DNA from: Candidatus Curtissbacteria bacterium RIFCSPLOWO2_02_FULL_40_11
GTDB lineage: Bacteria > Patescibacteriota > Microgenomatia > Curtissbacterales > GWA2-41-24
DNA: 53,558 nucleotides
Direction: 5' to 3'
NCBI GenBank assembly: GCA_001776505.1
Contig: MFBV01000032.1
Location: 1 to 53,558, forward strand
Program-made: the position numbers and the translations under genes
Shown here: piece by piece, positions 20,701 to 31,439 of the stretch
Layout of the letters: the number at the start of each line of letters is the position of its first letter
How positions within the stretch are numbered: position 1 is the stretch's first letter
The notes under the pieces: model-generated
The model's input: the letters and a program-made list of their open reading frames with translations, nothing else
Databases searched by the model: none
What the model was told of the DNA's origin: nothing

Positions 20701-21433
20701 AGGTGGAATTGTAGGTCTAGATATTACTCAGGGGCTACCTAGAGTCGAAGAGCTATTTGAAGCAAGGACTCCGAAATATATTGCTCAAATTTCGGAAATT
20801 TCGGGGAAAGTAAAAATCGAAGAGAAAGCTGACGAAATTGTTGTCAAAGTTAAGAGCACAAATCTAAAACCTCAAGTCGAAAAAGAATATTCTATTCCAC
20901 CAACAGCCGAGTTTTCTGTTGAAGATGGCCAACTTATTGTAGCGGGGACGCCTCTTTCAACAGGATATTTGGATGTCAAAGAAGTTCTATCAATTTCAGG
21001 TTTAAGAGCTGCTCAAAAATACATAACCAATGGTTGTCAAGAAGTATACGAAAGCCAGGGGGTAGCTATTAACGACAAGCATTTCGAAGTGATTGTCAAG
21101 AAAATGAGTGAAAAAGTGAAAGTAGAAACTTCTGGCGATACAGTACTTCTACCTGGTGAATTAATTGATAAGAATCGTTTTCAAGAAGAAAATGCTAAAG
21201 TAATGGCAGAAGGTGGAGAACCTGCAACAGCTCAGGTAATTCTCTTGGGTATTACAAGGACTGCACTTTACACAGAAAGCTTTCTATCTGCTGCTTCATT
21301 CCAAGAAACTACCAGAATTCTCACAGATGCTGCTATAGAGGGTAAAATAGACAGGCTATTAGGTCTCAAAGAGAATGTTATTATTGGAAGATTGATCCCA
21401 ACCAGCGAACAAAGAGCTACTATAAAGAATTAG
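17747..21433 (+). CDS. rpoC: DNA-directed RNA polymerase subunit beta'
   Basis: Zn finger CYCGKYKRIRYRGIICDKCGVEV, catalytic NADFDGDQMAVH, trigger-loop and bridge-helix blocks; K/E-rich coiled-coil insertion after the clamp. Confidence 0.98.
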   Translation: MNELIDFDSLKLTLASQDDIKTWSFGEVTKPETINYRTLKPEKDGLFDERIFGPTKDWECYCGKYKRIRYRGIICDKCGVEVTQSRVRRERMGHITLAAPVVHSWFFKGSPSKLGLLLDISPRSLDAVVYFASYLIIEVDDEKKKDVLKKLQAELEKKRKEQQVLLKQKLDEEEKATKKEVTQMKSKGKVKEQTDIKIEELQLNMRQRQAHLREESSREISRLEEIYKNIMDMVKSVKVFDLLSEEEYLKLYDYNAESFLKVGMGAETVLKALEKFDLSKLALTLREEIASSTGQKHIKATKRLRVVEGMRKAELSPNWMIIKILPVLPPDLRPMVQLSGGRFATSDLNDLYRRVINRNNRLKKLIELGAPDIILRNEKRMLQEAVDALIDSQRVKTTRASQELRSLSDMLRGKQGRFRQNLLGKRVDYSGRSVIVVGPELRLNQAGIPKEMALEMFKPFILREIIARGYAPNVKSAKHYLERRSSEVWDILDEITKNHPILLNRAPTLHRLGIQAFYPILIEGNAIRIHPCICAGFNADFDGDQMAVHVPLSEKSKEEAHRLMLAARNLVRPSDGSPITLPNKEMALGAYYLTSIDEKLPDYDSIFADEDEVLLALNTEKIALRQKINVFIGKKVILTTTGRVLFNKQLPQSMRFINETISAGRIKQLINVAIDKFPEEEVTDLIDRLKELGFEGATHSGLSVSVFDCMIVDDKEKIIQKADKEVEGIEKNFSVGLITKDEQKRLSQEVWLSVTNELADLTWRSLREDNSIKIISDSGGSRATAEQIKQLSAMRGLVTDPSGQIVPLPIKSNFREGLSVFEYFTSARGARKGLADRAIKTAESGYLTRRLVDVAHDAIIRLKDCGTKESIVVSKSDKRQMPFTLRLFGRVVADDIKSPKGKKLLVKANTLLEEEHVKAIDEANVEEVNIRSPLICEARYGLCALCYGRDLVSRELVSIGTPVGVIAAQSIGEPGTQLTMRTFHTGGIVGLDITQGLPRVEELFEARTPKYIAQISEISGKVKIEEKADEIVVKVKSTNLKPQVEKEYSIPPTAEFSVEDGQLIVAGTPLSTGYLDVKEVLSISGLRAAQKYITNGCQEVYESQGVAINDKHFEVIVKKMSEKVKVETSGDTVLLPGELIDKNRFQEENAKVMAEGGEPATAQVILLGITRTALYTESFLSAASFQETTRILTDAAIEGKIDRLLGLKENVIIGRLIPTSEQRATIKN

Positions 21434-21575: not shown

Positions 21576-22076
21576 ATGCCAACAGTAAATCAATTAGTAA
21601 GATACGGCAGAAAATCGAAAGAAAAACGTATTAAAGCCACGGCTCTTCGCCGAGCTTTCAATACAAACACTAATCGATATGTTTTTTACCCATCACCTCA
21701 AAAAAGAGGAGTTTGTGTAATTGTAAAAACAATGACTCCCAAGAAACCAAATTCTGCACTTCGAAAAGTTGCTCGAGTTCGACTGTCAAACAAACAGGAG
21801 GTTACAGCGTACATTCCTGGTATGGGTCATGAGCTTGCGGAACATTCTATTGTAATGGTACGTGGGGGAAGAGTCCAAGATTTACCGGGAGTGAAATATC
21901 ACATTGTTCGCGGTAAATACGACACTACCGGTGTTGCAAATAGAAAGCAAGGCAGATCACTATATGGAACTAAAAAATCTGGAGCGGTAAGTACAACTCA
22001 AGCAGCAGTATCTGCAGGAGCTTCTGTTGCAACTCAAGATCAGCCTAAACAAGAATTAGCGGGAGGAGAATCATAA
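21576..22076 (+). CDS. rpsL: 30S ribosomal protein S12 with about 30-aa C-terminal extension
   Basis: [37 protein letters not shown] motifs. Confidence 0.97.
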
Positions 22077-22573
22077 TGCCAAGAACAGGTAAAGTTGAAA
22101 GAAGAAAAACTTCCCCAGATCCTCTTTATCAAAATCTATTAGTTGCAAAACTTATTAACAAAGTTTTGAAACAGGGCAAAAAAACCATTGCTCAAACTAT
22201 AGTTTATGAATCTTTCAATAATATTCGGGCCGGCGGCAAAGACCCACTGCAAACTTTTGAAAAGGCTGTAGAAAATGCTACCCCTAAAATGGAAGTAAGA
22301 CCTAGGCGTGTAGGTGGTGCTTCTTATATGGTGCCGATGGAGGTTAGAGGACCTCGTCGCCAAGCTCTTGCTCTAAATTGGCTTATTACAGCAGCCCGAA
22401 ATCGCCAACTACCAGAAGTAAAAGATCGGCCAAAAAATAAACCAGTTATGATAACCAAACTTTCACAAGAAATACTGGACGCTGCCAATGGTGAAGGCGG
22501 AGCAGTTTCCAAAAAAGCAGAAATGCACAGAATGGCAGAAGCGAATAAGGCGTTTGCCCACTTTAGATGGTAA
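22076..22573 (+). CDS. rpsG: 30S ribosomal protein S7
   Basis: PDPLYQN, VEVRPRRVGGASYMVP, MAEANKAFAHFRW. Confidence 0.97.
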   Translation: MPRTGKVERRKTSPDPLYQNLLVAKLINKVLKQGKKTIAQTIVYESFNNIRAGGKDPLQTFEKAVENATPKMEVRPRRVGGASYMVPMEVRGPRRQALALNWLITAARNRQLPEVKDRPKNKPVMITKLSQEILDAANGEGGAVSKKAEMHRMAEANKAFAHFRW

Positions 22574-22580
22574 TTATCCA

Positions 22581-23030
22581 ATGTCAGAAACTAAAGCCGA
22601 GGAAACCAAAGTAGAATCCCGAAGGGTTACAAGCTTCGATCAGTTAAAGCCAAGAAAATTATATAGATTGCATTCTCATGACAGAAACGGCCAGAGAGAA
22701 GTAGTTGAAGTTAACACAAAAGATTTTTACATAGAAGAACCGGTTGACCCAAATGCACGTGAATTCAGATTTAAAGGATTAATTTATGTGAGGATACCAA
22801 ATAAAATTAAGACAGAAGGTTTAGATCTATTTGATTCGATTAGGTTACACGAATTTGGATTAGTATTTGTTAAAGGTTCCAATGAGGAACTTATAAGACA
22901 AGGGCATAAAGCTCTATCTGATTCCTATATTGTTGTTGAAGATCCATCAAAGGGAATTGGTAGCCCAACACATTCAGATCCTAGTTACAATAATTGGGTG
23001 GAGGAAATTAGCGACAGGGTAACAAAGTAG
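22581..23030 (+). CDS. hypothetical protein (island gene 1; ATG 22581)
   Basis: 149-aa ORF 7 nt after the rpsG stop; no recognisable motif. Confidence 0.5.
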   Translation: MSETKAEETKVESRRVTSFDQLKPRKLYRLHSHDRNGQREVVEVNTKDFYIEEPVDPNAREFRFKGLIYVRIPNKIKTEGLDLFDSIRLHEFGLVFVKGSNEELIRQGHKALSDSYIVVEDPSKGIGSPTHSDPSYNNWVEEISDRVTK

Positions 23031-23065
23031 CTTGTAATACAAGTTTTGCTGCCTAAAATGCCTAA

Positions 23066-23819
23066 AAGGGACGGTCCTTGAAAAAGTTGTTATATCAACC
23101 TAAATCAAGCAATTTTATTTAGTTTTAGCCCTCATATATTTCTTTTGTGCATATGTAGCAAATTTAACGTTCCCCATTACAGCCTCTTCCTTCTCAAATA
23201 ATTTTTCAATAGCACTCAAATCCTCTGAAATTCCGTTAATGATAAATTTCTCATATTCCTTCCTTGAGTTTTCAGTTTTCCCAATCAATCTAATGATATT
23301 TTTATCAAGGAAATGGAGTTGTTCTTTACCAAGAGCTTCTCTGATACTGCTGTATTTGTAATCTAATGGATTTTTGGCTAAGTTAGCTTTAACCGGATTT
23401 AGGTAGATATACTGGGAAAGTTTTAAGAAATATGAATCATTTTCAATGAGGATACTTTTAAATCTGTTTTGAAACACAGGTCCGAAGTGTTCATATTTTC
23501 GATTGAAATACATTGAATAACTTGTTCCCAAGGACGCCATTATCTTTGAGATTGGAACTTTGCGCGTCTGAATCGAAATATGGAAATGGTTTGGCATTAG
23601 ACAAAAAGCATAAAGAGAATGGTCGTACTTGTTTTTTAAGTCATTAAGTTTTCTTAAAAAGAATTGATAATCAGGTTCTGAAATAAAAATAGGTTGTTTG
23701 TTGATGCCCCTATTAAAGACGTGATAGAAAGCATCTGTGAATACGAACCGTGCGCCTCTAGGCATAGAATGTATGTTAATTTTAGCCTATTGCATGAGGC
23801 TTTTCAAGGACCGTCCCTT
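23066..23819. mobile_element. minimal IS200/RayT-like unit: Y1 transposase gene bracketed by perfect 19-bp inverted repeats
   Basis: AAGGGACGGTCCTTGAAAA at 23066-23084 and its exact reverse complement at 23801-23819; each repeat contains a small imperfect palindrome. Confidence 0.8.
23115..23765 (-). CDS. HUH Y1 transposase, IS200-like / REP-associated (RayT-like, COG1943)
   Basis: YHVFNRG, HUH motif LMPNHFHI, catalytic-Tyr context YIYLNPVKANL. Confidence 0.85.
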   Translation of the reverse strand: MPRGARFVFTDAFYHVFNRGINKQPIFISEPDYQFFLRKLNDLKNKYDHSLYAFCLMPNHFHISIQTRKVPISKIMASLGTSYSMYFNRKYEHFGPVFQNRFKSILIENDSYFLKLSQYIYLNPVKANLAKNPLDYKYSSIREALGKEQLHFLDKNIIRLIGKTENSRKEYEKFIINGISEDLSAIEKLFEKEEAVMGNVKFATYAQKKYMRAKTK

Positions 23820-23846
23820 CATACTTCATAGTTTTGGTTTTGTATG

Positions 23847-23875
23847 TTCACTAATATTTAGCCCTATGGTATAAT
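23847..23875 (+). promoter_or_regulatory. promoter TTCACT-N17-TATAAT with extended -10 TG
   Basis: tatggTATAAT at 23865-23875, just outside the right inverted repeat, reading toward fusA. Confidence 0.55.
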
Positions 23876-23964: not shown

Positions 23965-24231
23965 ATGGCAATAACACGCACACAAAAATTAAAACAGCTA
24001 AAGGTAAAGCTTCACGATCTTGAAGAAGTTAAGCTAAAAGATGCACTTGCAAAATATGGTGAAGCTTATCAAGATTCGGGTGGAGCTTGGCAGGAAAATG
24101 CCGCTTGGGAGCTAGCAGACGAAGAAATTTCTGTTCTTCGTGCTATGATTCAAGAAGTCAAAAAAGAAATTAAGGCATTGGAGAACCCATCCTCAATATC
24201 CACTACTGCCAAAAATATAAAATCCAAATAA
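23965..24231 (+). CDS. Gre-factor N-terminal coiled-coil-only protein (no C-terminal globular domain)
   Basis: GGAWQENAAWELADEEISVLRAMIQEVKKEI aligns with the GreA tip and helix 2 ([30 protein letters not shown]); 88 aa in total. Confidence 0.5.
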   Translation: MAITRTQKLKQLKVKLHDLEEVKLKDALAKYGEAYQDSGGAWQENAAWELADEEISVLRAMIQEVKKEIKALENPSSISTTAKNIKSK

Positions 24232-24662: not shown

Positions 24663-26801
24663 ATGAAGGATAAGACTACAAGACTCTACCCATTAGATAG
24701 AATAAGAAATATCGGAATCATTGCCCATATCGACGCCGGAAAAACAACAACTACAGAACGAATTCTTTTTTACACTGGAAAAACTTATAAACTTGGCAAC
24801 ATCGATGAAGGTACAACCATCACCGATTGGATGGCTCAGGAAAAAGAAAGAGGAATTACTATTGTTTCAGCAGCTGTCACAACATTTTGGAAAGCAAAAA
24901 GCGGTCCTTATAAAGATACCGATACCAGGATAAACATTATCGATACGCCGGGGCACGTTGACTTTACAGCCGAAGTCGAACGGTCGCTGCGTGTACTAGA
25001 TGGAGGAGTGACTGTTCTTGATGCAGAAGAAGGAGTTCAATCACAATCGGAAACCGTTTGGCGCCAAGCCGACAAATACAAAGTACCCAGAATTTGCTTC
25101 ATTAACAAGATGGACAAATTAGGAGCAGATTACTTCGCAACTCTCAAATCAATTCGTGATAAATTAAATGCTCCGGCAGTTCCCTACAATTTACCAATTG
25201 GTACCGAAAATGATTTCAAAGGTGTTGTCGACCTACTTTCACAAAAAGCTTATGTCTGGGAAACGGGAGTGGACGGTACTGGGAAAGAATTTAAAGAAGT
25301 AGATATTCCCCATGATATGAAGGCAGATGTTGAAAAATACAGAAATGAACTCATAGAAAAAATCGCGGAAACAGATGATACTCTTATAGAAAAATATCTT
25401 GGCGGTGAAACAATAGAAATTGATGAACTCAAAAAAGCCCTCAGAGGAGCGGTCATCAAGTACAAAATTGTTCCGGTTATGGCAGGTTCTTCTCTAAGAA
25501 ATAAAGGTGTTCAACCACTCCTGGATGCGATTGTTGAATATCTGCCTTCTCCCAAAGATATAGAAAAAGTTGAAGGTGAAAATCCCAAAACCAAAGAAAA
25601 AGAGACTCGAAAATTAGTAACAGAAGAACCGTATTGCGGCTTAGCTTTTAAAATACAAGTCGATCCTCATGTTGGAAAACTTACATTTGTGAGAGTATAT
25701 TCAGGTACTTTAAAATCCGGATCTTCAGTCACAAACACTACTAAGAGCAAAAAAGAAAGAATCGGCAGAATACTTCTGATGCACGCAAATACCAGAGAAG
25801 AAATACAGGAGGCATATGCCGGAGAAATCATTGCAATAGTCGGTCTAAAATCAACAGCCACCGGGGATACCCTCTGCGATGATCAACACCCTTTAATTCT
25901 CGAGTCGATCACATTTCCCGATCCGGTCATATCGCTTGCTATCGAACCAGAAACAAAATCCGATCAAGAGAAATTAGGTTATGCCCTTGGACGTCTGGCC
26001 GAAGAAGATCCGACTTTCAAAATTAAAGGCGATCCGGAAACCGGACAGACAATAATTTCCGGGATGGGCGAACTCCACCTGGAAATTATTGTTGACAGGA
26101 TGAAGCGTGAGTTTTCTGTAAACGCTCAAGTCGGTCGTCCTCAGGTAGCTTATCGGGAAACTATCAAAAAAGAGGCAAATGGCGAAGGTAAGTATATTCG
26201 TCAGTCAGGCGGGCGCGGGCAGTATGGACATTGTTTCTTAAAAGTAGAACCAAAACCAAGAGGAGAAGGTTACGAGTTTGTCTCTACTATTAAAGGTGGG
26301 GCAATTCCTTCAGAATTTATCCCGTCAATTGAAAAAGGTGTCATAGAAAAATTGGATCAGGGAATTCTAGCAGGTTACCCACTGGTCGACATGAAAGTTA
26401 CAGTTTATGATGGAAGCTTTCATGAGGTTGATTCTTCGGACATTGCCTTCAAGATTGCAGGGTCTATGGCTGTCGAAGATGCCGCCAAAAATGCCCAGCT
26501 TACGCTTCTCGAGCCGATTATGAAGTGCGAAGTTACAGTTCCGGAAGACTTTATGGGAGACGTAATTGGAGATCTTTCAAGCAAACGTGCCCAAGTCCAT
26601 GGTACTGATCATCATGGAAACAGTGTAATTGTTAACGCTTTAGTACCCCTTGCCGAAATGTCAGGTTACGTTACAACCTTAAGATCAATGACCCAAGGCC
26701 GCGGATCCGTCTACCTTGAACCCTCCCACTACGAAGAGGTACCAACGAATATAGCTGATAAGATAATCTCCAAAGTTAAAGGAGAAAAAAGCGAATCCTA
26801 A
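24663..26801 (+). CDS. fusA: elongation factor G
   Basis: [24 protein letters not shown] and domain IV/V blocks. Confidence 0.98.
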
Positions 26802-29399: not shown

Positions 29400-30314
29400 A
29401 TGATTAAAACGATCTTAGGTACTAAATCAAATATGTCGTCAGTATACAACCAGTTCGGTCATCAGGTACCGGTAACTACCGTTATGGCCGAACCAAATAT
29501 TGTATTCGGTATACGAGATAAAAAAATTATACTTGGGTTAGGTAAAAAGAAAATATCTAAGAAAACAGAAAACACCTATCTAAAAATAGCAGGATTCCCA
29601 CCAAGATTTATTAAAGAAGTAACACTAAAAAACGAAACATCAAAAGAACAAAAAACCTCAGAAATTCCTCAAGAAAATTCCCAACAAAACCAAGAAGTTG
29701 CCAAAAAAATTAATTTAGGAGACAAAATAACAGTCTCCATTTTTGAACCTGGCGACGAAGTAAAGGTGACGGGAACTACCAAAGGTAAGGGTTTTACTGG
29801 AGTCGTCAAAAGGTGGGGTTTTGCTGGAGGTCCAAAAACTCACGGCCAATCCGACCGCCATAGAGCGCCTGGATCTATTGGAATGGGAACCACGCCGGGG
29901 CGTGTTTTTAAGGGAAAGAAAATGGCAGGGCATCTGGGTAACTCTAAACTTACTGTTACTGGTCTTGAGGTAATTGAAGTTAACGAAGATAAAAATATTA
30001 TTTTAATTAAGGGTGCAATTCCAGGCCCAAAGGATGGTTTTTTAATAATTGAAAAAACTGGAAAAGTAAAAAGTTATACTCTTCCACCACCGAGCGAAGA
30101 AAAACAGACAGCCGCCGAAGGCCTGCTACACCCGCTTCGACACGTCGCCGAAGGCGAACCTCGCCAATGGCGGGTCGAAGACGAGGCGAGCGGCGAGGCG
30201 AGCGAACCTCGACCCGAAAGTTGGGAAAAAGAAGCGAAAGCTGATGAGAAAGAAGAAACAAAAGGGACAAAAGAGTTGAAGGAAAAGGAGGAAAATGAAG
30301 ATGCCAAGAGTTAA
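29400..30314 (+). CDS. rplC: 50S ribosomal protein L3 with internal insertion and about 85-aa C-terminal extension (ATG 29400; alternative TTG 29379 after AAGGAG)
   Basis: MIKTILGTKSNMS, GTTKGKGFTGVVKRWGFAGGPKTHGQSDRHRAPGSIG. Confidence 0.95.
   Translation: MIKTILGTKSNMSSVYNQFGHQVPVTTVMAEPNIVFGIRDKKIILGLGKKKISKKTENTYLKIAGFPPRFIKEVTLKNETSKEQKTSEIPQENSQQNQEVAKKINLGDKITVSIFEPGDEVKVTGTTKGKGFTGVVKRWGFAGGPKTHGQSDRHRAPGSIGMGTTPGRVFKGKKMAGHLGNSKLTVTGLEVIEVNEDKNIILIKGAIPGPKDGFLIIEKTGKVKSYTLPPPSEEKQTAAEGLLHPLRHVAEGEPRQWRVEDEASGEASEPRPESWEKEAKADEKEETKGTKELKEKEENEDAKS
30100..30225 (+). repeat. GC-rich hairpin-dense segment embedded in frame in the rplC 3' extension
   Basis: Locally GC-rich (gccgccgaaggcc...cgaacctcgacccg); contains the CGCC-GAA-GGCG / CGCC-AAT-GGCG module also seen at 3321-3351, and a CGGGTCGA...TCGACCCG stem. 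Confidence 0.8.
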
Positions 30315-31002: not shown

Positions 31003-31439
31003 ACAGTGCGAAATTAATAAAAAGAGCAATTTTATCCGAGAAGTCGTACGGTCTTATGGACAAAGGTATTTATACTATTCTAGTGGCAAAGGATGCAAAT
31101 AAAAACCAAATAAAAAAAGCAGTAGAGAACCAATTTCAAGTAAATGTGAAAGGTGTAAATGTTCTAATAAAAAGTGCGAAGACTAAGAGGATTACTGGAA
31201 CTAGAAAGACTGCAACCATTGGAGCCGGTAAAAAGGCCGTTATAACTCTAGAGAAGGGTCAAAGCATTGCACTTTTCAGTACAAAGAGTGAAAAGCCCGC
31301 TTCGCAAGCGAAGCGAGGCGAGTCTAAAACCAAAAAAACAGAATTAAAAGAAAAAAGCAAAGAAATAAAAAAAGAGGACAAAGGCAAAGGAATACTTGGA
31401 AAATTTAGGATCCAAAAGAGTAAAAAGGAAAGAGAGTAA
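30999..31439 (+). CDS. rplW: 50S ribosomal protein L23 with K-rich C-terminal extension
   Basis: LIKRAILSEKS, VAKDANKNQIKKAVE; extension begins near residue 95. Confidence 0.95.
   Translation: MNSAKLIKRAILSEKSYGLMDKGIYTILVAKDANKNQIKKAVENQFQVNVKGVNVLIKSAKTKRITGTRKTATIGAGKKAVITLEKGQSIALFSTKSEKPASQAKRGESKTKKTELKEKSKEIKKEDKGKGILGKFRIQKSKKERE
31298..31315 (+). repeat. perfect GC-rich palindrome CGCTTCGC-AA-GCGAAGCG inside the rplW extension
   Basis: Direct reading; followed by aggcgag, the same motif type as 32285-32299 and 30181-30205. Confidence 0.85.

Follow-up and report, generated by a model that had tools for sequence, protein, structure and literature searches.

The window analyzed here is a 53,558-nucleotide stretch of the genome of Candidatus Curtissbacteria bacterium RIFCSPLOWO2_02_FULL_40_11 (contig MFBV01000032.1), and positions without a prefix refer to it. 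Between rpsG (22076-22573, + strand) and fusA (24663-26801, + strand), the window carries a gene for a HUH single-tyrosine (Y1) transposase of 216 amino acids in antisense orientation, enclosed by a perfect 19-bp inverted repeat. A first-pass annotation made from the letters of the window had drawn attention to this placement within a ribosomal operon, to the repeat, and to the HUH and catalytic-tyrosine motifs of the protein, and had described the whole as a REPtron-like arrangement. The descriptive part of that account holds: the coordinates of the repeat are exact, the gene lies on the - strand between two + strand genes, and the motifs NHFH and YIYLNP are both present. The unit extends over about 750 bp, from 23068 to 23817, and the following features lie within it and at its edges.

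23050-23067, no strand: tandem duplication of TGCCTAAAA (two copies), a junction scar that adjoins the gene-distal end motif on its outer side.
23066-23084, + strand: arm 1 of the 19-bp repeat, with the conserved core GGGACGGTCC at 23068-23077; this is the unit end downstream of the Y1 stop codon.
23068-23116, + strand: gene-distal terminal module of about 50 nucleotides (nt), pointing inward and made up of the end motif and a degenerate copy of the promoter-like segment (nhmmer E=8.5e-10).
23115-23765, - strand: intact gene for the 216-amino-acid HUH/Y1 tyrosine transposase, RayT-like and putatively of the TIRYT type, with the motifs NHFH at 23580-23591, FQ at 23469-23474, YIYLNP at 23394-23411 and SS at 23346-23351.
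23768-23817, - strand: terminal module of about 50 nt at the gene-proximal (5') end (nhmmer E=4.1e-11).
23779-23807, - strand: promoter-like site of the Y1 gene, TTGAAA-17-TAAAAT, matching at 10 of 12 positions, with its -35 hexamer inside the 19-bp repeat arm.
23801-23819, - strand: arm 2 of the 19-bp repeat, whose core reads GGACCGTCCC on the + strand at 23808-23817.
23817-23830, no strand: tandem duplication of CTTCATA (two copies), abutting the gene-proximal end and differing in copy number and sequence in two same-genus genomes.

The reverse complement of AAGGGACGGTCCTTGAAAA (23066-23084) recurs without a mismatch at 23801-23819, and the arms are separated by 716 nt. These arms are the only matches to the 19-mer in the window at up to 3 mismatches, where shuffling gives an expectation of 0.01 matches and two or more matches were obtained in 0 of 100 shuffles. 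An nhmmer profile of 34 end modules from related genomes matches both unit ends over about 50 nt, so the inverted similarity is longer than the 19 perfect bases, and the same profile has no other match in the 938-kb assembly (next E=0.27). Where this unit has its promoter-like site, orthologues carry TTGACA-17-CATAAT or CATAGT. The small imperfect palindrome that the first-pass annotation had placed in each arm is present as sequence but is barely stable as single-stranded DNA, folding marginally at -1.1 to -1.5 kcal/mol (z about -0.6). Inspection of both unit ends revealed no GT[AG]G foot, and a scan revealed no terminator-like site, the stem being weak and without a T-run. Because of these properties, the term terminal inverted repeat fits the ends better than repetitive extragenic palindrome (REP) hairpin. 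A second inner stem in the end module (GCCT...AGGC) varies between copies with hints of compensation, but it overlaps the -35 box.

The encoded protein matches the Pfam family Y1_Tnp ("Transposase IS200 like") with E=1.2e-12. No further Pfam match was obtained at E<=0.01, so no C-terminal helix-turn-helix (HTH) domain was detected; in an AlphaFold2 model (pLDDT 84) the C-terminal tail is helical at residues 156-215, with low confidence after residue 190. The NCBIfam model REP_Tyr_transpos scores 71.5-72.4 bits (E=6e-20), short of the equivalog cut-off of 80 bits, which is passed by none of the eight Y1 paralogues of this genome. The NCBIfam IS200 model does not match the protein at all, and its best hit genome-wide, on another paralogue, reaches 21 bits against a cut-off of 55. 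A fold search returned E. coli TnpA_REP bound to a REP hairpin (4ER8_A) as the best match (E=7.7e-9, TM 0.74), followed by the ISDra2, IS200 and IS608 transposases (E 6e-6 to 4e-4); a direct sequence search against solved structures found 4ER8 weakly (E=0.07), and it was the fold search that settled the closest structure.

The first-pass annotation had raised the possibility that the catalytic residues might be mutated. An alignment of 30 homologues shows no variation at H60, H62, Y119, N123 and P124, and S139 and S140 are nearly invariant in it and invariant in a 10-sequence alignment. Hence the motifs are intact and the catalytic residues are not mutated. The dN/dS ratio of the gene (nonsynonymous to synonymous divergence) is 0.16-0.23, indicating purifying selection. 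A Phe occupies the position of the conserved Trp in the W-Q motif that flanks the GTAG-recognition region. TnpA-Y1 subclass 2.1 is marked by NH[YF]H, FQ or W[EQ], Y[IV]HLNP and an SS tail (Table 1 of Quentin et al. 2018, PMC6006769), and this signature is matched by NHFH, FQ, YIYLNP (YIHLNP in the paralogues) and SS, with a length of 216 amino acids as compared with about 238. Judged by its motifs, hidden Markov model scores and predicted fold, the protein is best assigned to the RayT branch and not to IS200 TnpA, a point in favour of the REPtron-like interpretation of the first-pass annotation.

In the 938-kb assembly, which is 95% complete and in which some stretches read N, the end motif occurs only at the two unit ends, whether searched for as a 14-mer with at most 1 mismatch, as a pattern with at most 2 mismatches or with the 50-nt profile. 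The earlier remark that no other repeat of the window shares the motif can be extended to the genome, where the repeat family of the GGGACGGTCC unit is empty. A GC-rich hairpin block at 30100-30225 was considered and rejected, as it is composed of other repeat families (CGCTTCG...CGAAGCG and similar) and contains the motif neither of the unit nor of any of the eight paralogues.

The association of motif and gene is most evident in related genomes. Orthologues are present in two same-genus genomes (96-97% identity), in two other genera (76-79%) and, as a decayed copy, in another family (58%). Clustered at 90% identity, the orthologues form more than 1000 clusters, the 120 listed span 70-100% identity, and the sources named among them (taxon names being the source names given to the homologues) are Curtissbacteria, Levybacteria, Daviesbacteria and Microgenomates. 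In all 11 orthologous loci from other genomes (58-97% identity), GGGACGGTCC(T) lies upstream of the gene, at a distance of about 56 nt from the start codon (78 nt for the decayed copy), and GGACCGTCCC lies downstream, 10-95 nt after the stop codon. The flanks beyond the motif diverge among these loci, similarity starts and stops at the motif, and at least six gene neighbourhoods are represented, including rpsG-fusA, ftsEX-prfB (two loci) and a tRNA synthetase beside mraZ. The decayed orthologue (L021, G038:C2:36482-39961) has one TGA and three TAA codons in its N-terminal part, and yet both of its end motifs are intact, the downstream one about 95 nt past the truncated open reading frame (ORF).

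Relatives also contain the motif apart from the gene. In a 10-mer census of 41 related genomes, those holding an orthologue have 2-11 copies and most others have 0-1, with a reversed-pattern control mostly giving 0-2; because these genomes are kin rather than independent, the counts are descriptive. Four minis of 133-156 nt lack the gene and have the motif in inverted orientation at their two ends, and L058 has a further inverted motif pair 155 nt apart. No target-site duplication was seen around the four minis, and there is no conserved target tetranucleotide beside the ends of the unit and its relatives. When an empty site was sought in same-genus genomes for the G002 mini (L030) and for a solo end (L093), only one flank could be matched. 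Solo ends keep the terminal module of about 50 nt with its promoter-like segment, and some of them (L093/L094/L098 and L097/L099, in G002, G005, G014 and G023) run into shared repeats such as ...ATCAGTTTATGRTTCGA... and ...TTAGTTTACTTGTCCRCCGAAGCTTT...; subtypes of the solo end module are common to several genera, and the modules seem to be parts of larger composite repeats. The idea that solo ends serve as portable promoters was rejected, as the downstream ORFs are inconsistent and several solo ends lie within such composite repeats.

The outer edges of the ends carry a further mark. At 16 of 46 ends, a tandem duplication of 7-13 nt directly adjoins the end motif, as compared with 1.5% of control positions, and these duplications often include the first 1-5 bases of the motif. 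At one and the same junction, these scars differ in copy number and sequence among three same-genus genomes. It is possible that they originate from repeated nicking and rejoining by the enzyme, or from slippage at the end motif. In the window and in relatives L017-L061, the ends also often have a partial GGGAC(G) copy 7-9 nt further out.

Comparison of this genome (G000) with G001 and G002 shows the unit to be 97-98% identical in nucleotide sequence, with a synonymous divergence (dS) of 0.06-0.09, whereas rpsG is 77% identical (dS about 1.6) and fusA 76-86%. Since dS to orthologues of other genera is saturated, the unit is under no general synonymous constraint. The difference between the unit and rpsG indicates that the unit was recently exchanged laterally between species. 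On the left, high identity ends exactly at the motif (23066-23068). To the right of the unit, identity falls gradually through an 88-amino-acid ORF at 23965-24231 that weakly resembles the N-terminal coiled coil of GreA/GreB (Pfam E=0.0012, below the cut-off). This ORF is 90% identical between species, with a dS of 0.44-0.55 that lies between those of the unit and rpsG, and it follows an extended -10 promoter-like site at 23847-23875 (TTCACT-17-TGgTATAAT) divergent from the Y1 promoter. Between rpsG and the end motif (22574-23065 in the window; L018:708-1450 in G001; L017:705-1450 in G002), each of the three same-genus genomes has a different, unrelated ORF, of 180/158, 195 and 218 amino acids. 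In G001 and G002, a ghost rpsG 3' end resembling the allele of this genome is found about 100 nt beyond the stop codon of the live gene.

The unit is one of eight Y1 genes in this 0.94-Mb genome. The other seven encode proteins 30-47% identical to the 216-amino-acid protein and are located as follows.

C37:20333-20935, + strand: paralogue with direct flanking repeats at C37:20266-20278 and 20956-20968.
C36:394-1005, + strand: paralogue with direct flanking repeats at C36:347-360 and 1019-1032.
C13:22104-22775, - strand: paralogue with direct flanking repeats at C13:22079-22092 and 22810-22823.
C26:309-995, - strand: paralogue.
C26:5518-6207, + strand: paralogue.
C30:3267-3938, + strand: paralogue.
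C35:4623-5318, - strand: paralogue.

All eight are accompanied by a matching pair of a short palindrome of their own, with one copy some 35-45 nt ahead of the start codon and the other 0-30 nt beyond the stop codon; examples are TCCCGATACCGGATCGGGA, TCACCTCGGAGGTGA, AAGGCCAGGCCTT and AAGGAGACTCCTT. Five of the pairs are inverted and three (C37, C36 and C13) are direct, with the orientation of nearly perfect palindromes judged from their central and flanking bases, and inverted and direct arrangements consequently coexist in one protein family within one genome. A third copy of the palindrome occurs in the coding sequence at C13:22298-22310 and C26:518-530, directly 3' of the RYIHLNP codons, where it encodes K(E/D)SPL; a weaker internal copy is located at C26:5733-5751.

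The palindromes of several paralogues form stable hairpins (-5.2 to -8.8 kcal/mol) and are dispersed at 8-23 sites per family, where the reversed control finds 0 sites (7 for the C37 type). Dispersed hairpins of the C30, C37 and C26a/C13 types are often arranged as inverted doublets, 19-37 nt from start to start, and most doublets lie inside long open frames, which for most of the C30/C37-type doublets measure 150-2800 codons. Examples of C30/C37-type doublets (21-37 nt from start to start) are found at C18:18043-18091, C27:8123-8171, C42:9878-9924, C37:12806-12852 and C44:16908-16955. Doublets lying in frame within genes are thereby linked to candidate cognate enzymes. There are also hairpin families without an adjacent Y1 gene in the assembly, namely GTCGAGTCTGACTCGAC (10 copies), CCGAGGGTTAAGAACCCTCGG (about 8), CGCTTCG...CGAAGCG (7) and CCGAGGACTCTTAGTCCTCGG (4), with window positions 31298 and 49967 among their sites.

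Related genomes hold 1-9 Y1 paralogues each. The four other paralogues that were compared lack a close orthologue in same-genus genomes (best 41-50% identity), which points to rapid turnover of the paralogue repertoire, subject to the 88-92% completeness of those assemblies. The REPtron-like arrangement proposed in the first-pass annotation is borne out in part. An inverted motif does accompany the gene at every orthologous locus examined, and a REPtron-like system is supported at the level of the genome, where each of eight paralogues has its own palindrome and several palindromes are dispersed as inverted doublets. The motif of the unit itself is not a REP, however, since it has no GT[AG]G foot, a marginal hairpin and no dispersed copies.

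We consider it likely that the locus is a TIRtron-type unit, in which one gene for a class-2 HUH single-tyrosine nuclease-ligase (RayT-like, resembling TIRYT or subclass 2.1) is bounded by its inverted cognate end motif GGGACGGTCCT. By analogy with the established HUH/Y1 chemistry of IS608, ISDra2 and TnpA_REP, the protein would bind both copies of GGGACGGTCCT and use Tyr119 to nick the DNA at the motif's outer edge or slightly inside it, with His60 and His62 holding the metal. Strand rejoining could then move the segment between the inverted ends, either the unit itself or the minis in trans, without a target-site duplication. Binding would probably also repress the gene's own promoter, because the -35 box is in or next to the motif.

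Several points weigh against this interpretation. The unit is single-copy in this genome and has no dispersed motif copies. The same locus and arrangement recur in 9 metagenome loci from several independent samples, and the unit is fixed within the species. No empty site, circle junction or polymorphism was found for it, and no transposition event was directly seen. Moreover, recombination of the whole rpsG-fusA island, rather than the enzyme, may explain the exchange within the genus, because of the ghost rpsG 3' end in G001 and G002 and the gradual decay of identity on the right-hand side. Characterised Y1 enzymes as a rule recognise single-stranded hairpins, and with a hairpin as marginal as this one, recognition in that form is not assured. 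Inverted ends also place the motif on opposite strands, whereas IS200/IS605 elements process both ends on one strand. Finally, we know of no enzyme of this subclass that has been characterised biochemically.

A first alternative is that the gene has been domesticated and moves nothing here. The inverted motifs would then be operators or binding sites for autoregulation, or would serve a local task on single-stranded DNA, and the gene would be inherited and exchanged passively with the rpsG-fusA island. The single copy at one locus in 9 metagenome loci, the lack of dispersed motif copies, the overlap of the -35 box with the motif and the ghost rpsG end, which points to island exchange by recombination, are all in keeping with such a role, as are purifying selection and the high conservation of the protein across Microgenomates lineages. 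Bertels et al. 2017 (PMC5581495) also argue that, for the most part, RAYT groups resemble housekeeping genes in their behaviour. Nevertheless, we regard domestication as unlikely. The same bounded unit occurs in unrelated neighbourhoods of other genera, minis without a gene and solo ends carry its motif in relatives, the decayed G038 copy still has intact ends, and the four paralogues without close same-genus orthologues are evidence of fast turnover.

Alternatively, the unit could be an ordinary insertion sequence of the IS200/IS605 family that happens to be single-copy. The first-pass annotation had anticipated this outcome if the motif occurred nowhere else in the genome and the protein grouped with IS200 TnpA. 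The first is what we find, and the second is not. The name of the Pfam family, the fold matches to IS608, ISDra2 and IS200 transposases and the recurrence of gene plus ends in different contexts might also be taken in favour of a plain insertion sequence. However, the protein has Y---NP (class 2) instead of Y---Q and NHFH instead of DH[VI]H (Table 1, PMC6006769), and the IS200 model misses it. The motifs strongly suggest a placement outside subclass 1.1. The ends are inverted and are not same-strand subterminal hairpins, near-identical copies are lacking among paralogues of 30-47% identity, and there is no tnpB, so that we give this alternative very little credence. A third alternative is that the repeat is a chance occurrence, or a bidirectional terminator or insulator, unrelated to the enzyme. 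The genes on either side of it, convergent or divergent, and the placing of one arm behind the stop codons of two convergent ORFs would be in keeping with this, but the chance expectation of 0.01, the weak stem without T-run or terminator-like site, and above all the conservation of motif with gene across contexts, in all 11 other loci, refute it for practical purposes.

Among described systems, the closest is the TIRtron, reported together with its TIRYT enzyme by Di Nocera, De Gregorio & Rocco 2013 (PMC3733652). Quentin et al. 2018 (PMC6006769) equate TIRYT with their TnpA-Y1 subclass 2.1 and with the Group 1 RAYTs of Bertels et al. 2017 (PMC5581495). The arrangement itself had accordingly been described before and is not new. 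As in TIRtrons, a RayT-like Y1 gene of about 200-240 amino acids lies between inverted terminal repeats that are not GTAG REPs and are set at a roughly fixed distance from the gene. These repeats are moderately abundant or absent elsewhere in the genome, and several divergent paralogues may be present in one genome, each with its own repeat. The protein motifs are likewise shared (NH[YF]H / FQ / Y[IV]HLNP / SS). The end motif starts with a run of G, reading GGGACGGT in this unit and GGGGACGG in relatives L020, L021, L058 and L059, and GGGGACGG agrees at 7 of 8 positions with GGGGWSAS, the end consensus published for many TIRtrons although not all of them (the comparison being with the published consensus).

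There are also differences. According to Quentin et al. 2018 (PMC6006769), class-2 genes are found preferentially in large genomes, whereas the host here belongs to the Patescibacteria, or Candidate Phyla Radiation (CPR), and has eight paralogues in a genome of less than 1 Mb (0.94 Mb). The C-terminal HTH domain of subclass 2.1 and Group 1 RAYTs (Bac_DnaA_C, HTH_23 or HTH_28) was not detected by Pfam in this protein. Quentin et al. (PMC6006769) found no repeats for subclass 2.1, but several of the paralogues in this genome have clear hairpins, which recur as dispersed inverted doublets and for the most part within genes. Short tandem-duplication scars at the ends are a further point of difference.

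The classical REPtron, represented by E. coli RayT/TnpA_REP (YafM, PDB 4ER8) with its REP/BIME sequences (Nunvar 2010; Ton-Hoang 2012, PMC3333891; Messing 2012, PMC3479197), resembles the unit in having a class-2 Y1 enzyme with Y---NP, which is also the best fold match, and a single-copy gene between inverted copies of its cognate sequence. It differs in that the motif of the unit lacks a GT[AG]G foot, does not fold into a stable hairpin and is not part of a high-copy REP population in this genome (relatives with an orthologue have the 2-11 copies noted above), in the REP_Tyr_transpos score of 71.5 bits, below the cut-off, and in the Phe that replaces Trp. Hence three defining REPtron features, the equivalog score, the GTAG hairpin and a dispersed REP population, are missing from the unit. 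Elements of the IS200/IS605 family such as IS608 and ISDra2, which undergo "peel and paste" single-strand transposition, share its HUH/Y1 chemistry and fold and its small size, with the enzyme gene between two recognition elements. Like them, its minis have no target-site duplication, and three of the eight paralogues have direct flanking palindromes. The unit nevertheless fails the defining features of such an element, as it belongs to the Y---NP and not the Y---Q transposase class, has inverted ends without a conserved target tetranucleotide, is single-copy and lacks tnpB. The inverted doublets of the paralogue hairpins in open frames are reminiscent of REPINs and other in-frame palindromes (Bertels & Rainey 2011, PMC3116915; Rickettsia RPEs; the intragenic REPs of Di Nocera 2013). 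This likeness holds for the paralogues and not for the GGGACGGTCC unit, and the copy numbers are low (8-23 sites per family).

Taken together, the eight paralogues of this genome and the 1-9 of its relatives might represent a working multi-enzyme repeat system of the CPR, a broader interpretation that we offer tentatively and with some doubt. Each enzyme would have a private "address" in the form of its hairpin or end motif. Enzymes would write REPIN-like double hairpins in frame into genes, essential ones included, and the GGGACGGTCC unit would be an autonomous member still passing between species. The tandem duplications of 7-13 nt would then be the footprints of nicking and rejoining.

Nearly all work on RayT and TIRYT enzymes and the repeats that go with them has concerned Proteobacteria and Cyanobacteria. 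The first-pass annotation knew of no REPtron-like system from a reduced CPR-type genome, and our search of the literature on RAYT, REPIN, REPtron, tyrosine transposase or IS200 in CPR/Patescibacteria likewise found no description of one. Taken alone, the GGGACGGTCC unit is one more ordinary example of a class already described, and the interest lies mainly in the picture at the level of the genome. A TIRYT-type unit and seven paralogous units in a CPR genome of less than 1 Mb amount to approximately one Y1 gene per 120 kb, each with a cognate palindrome, and they provide a candidate enzyme for the many hairpin insertions seen in CPR genes. Moreover, the eight pairs of enzyme and site constitute a compact natural panel for DNA recognition by this uncharacterised subclass.

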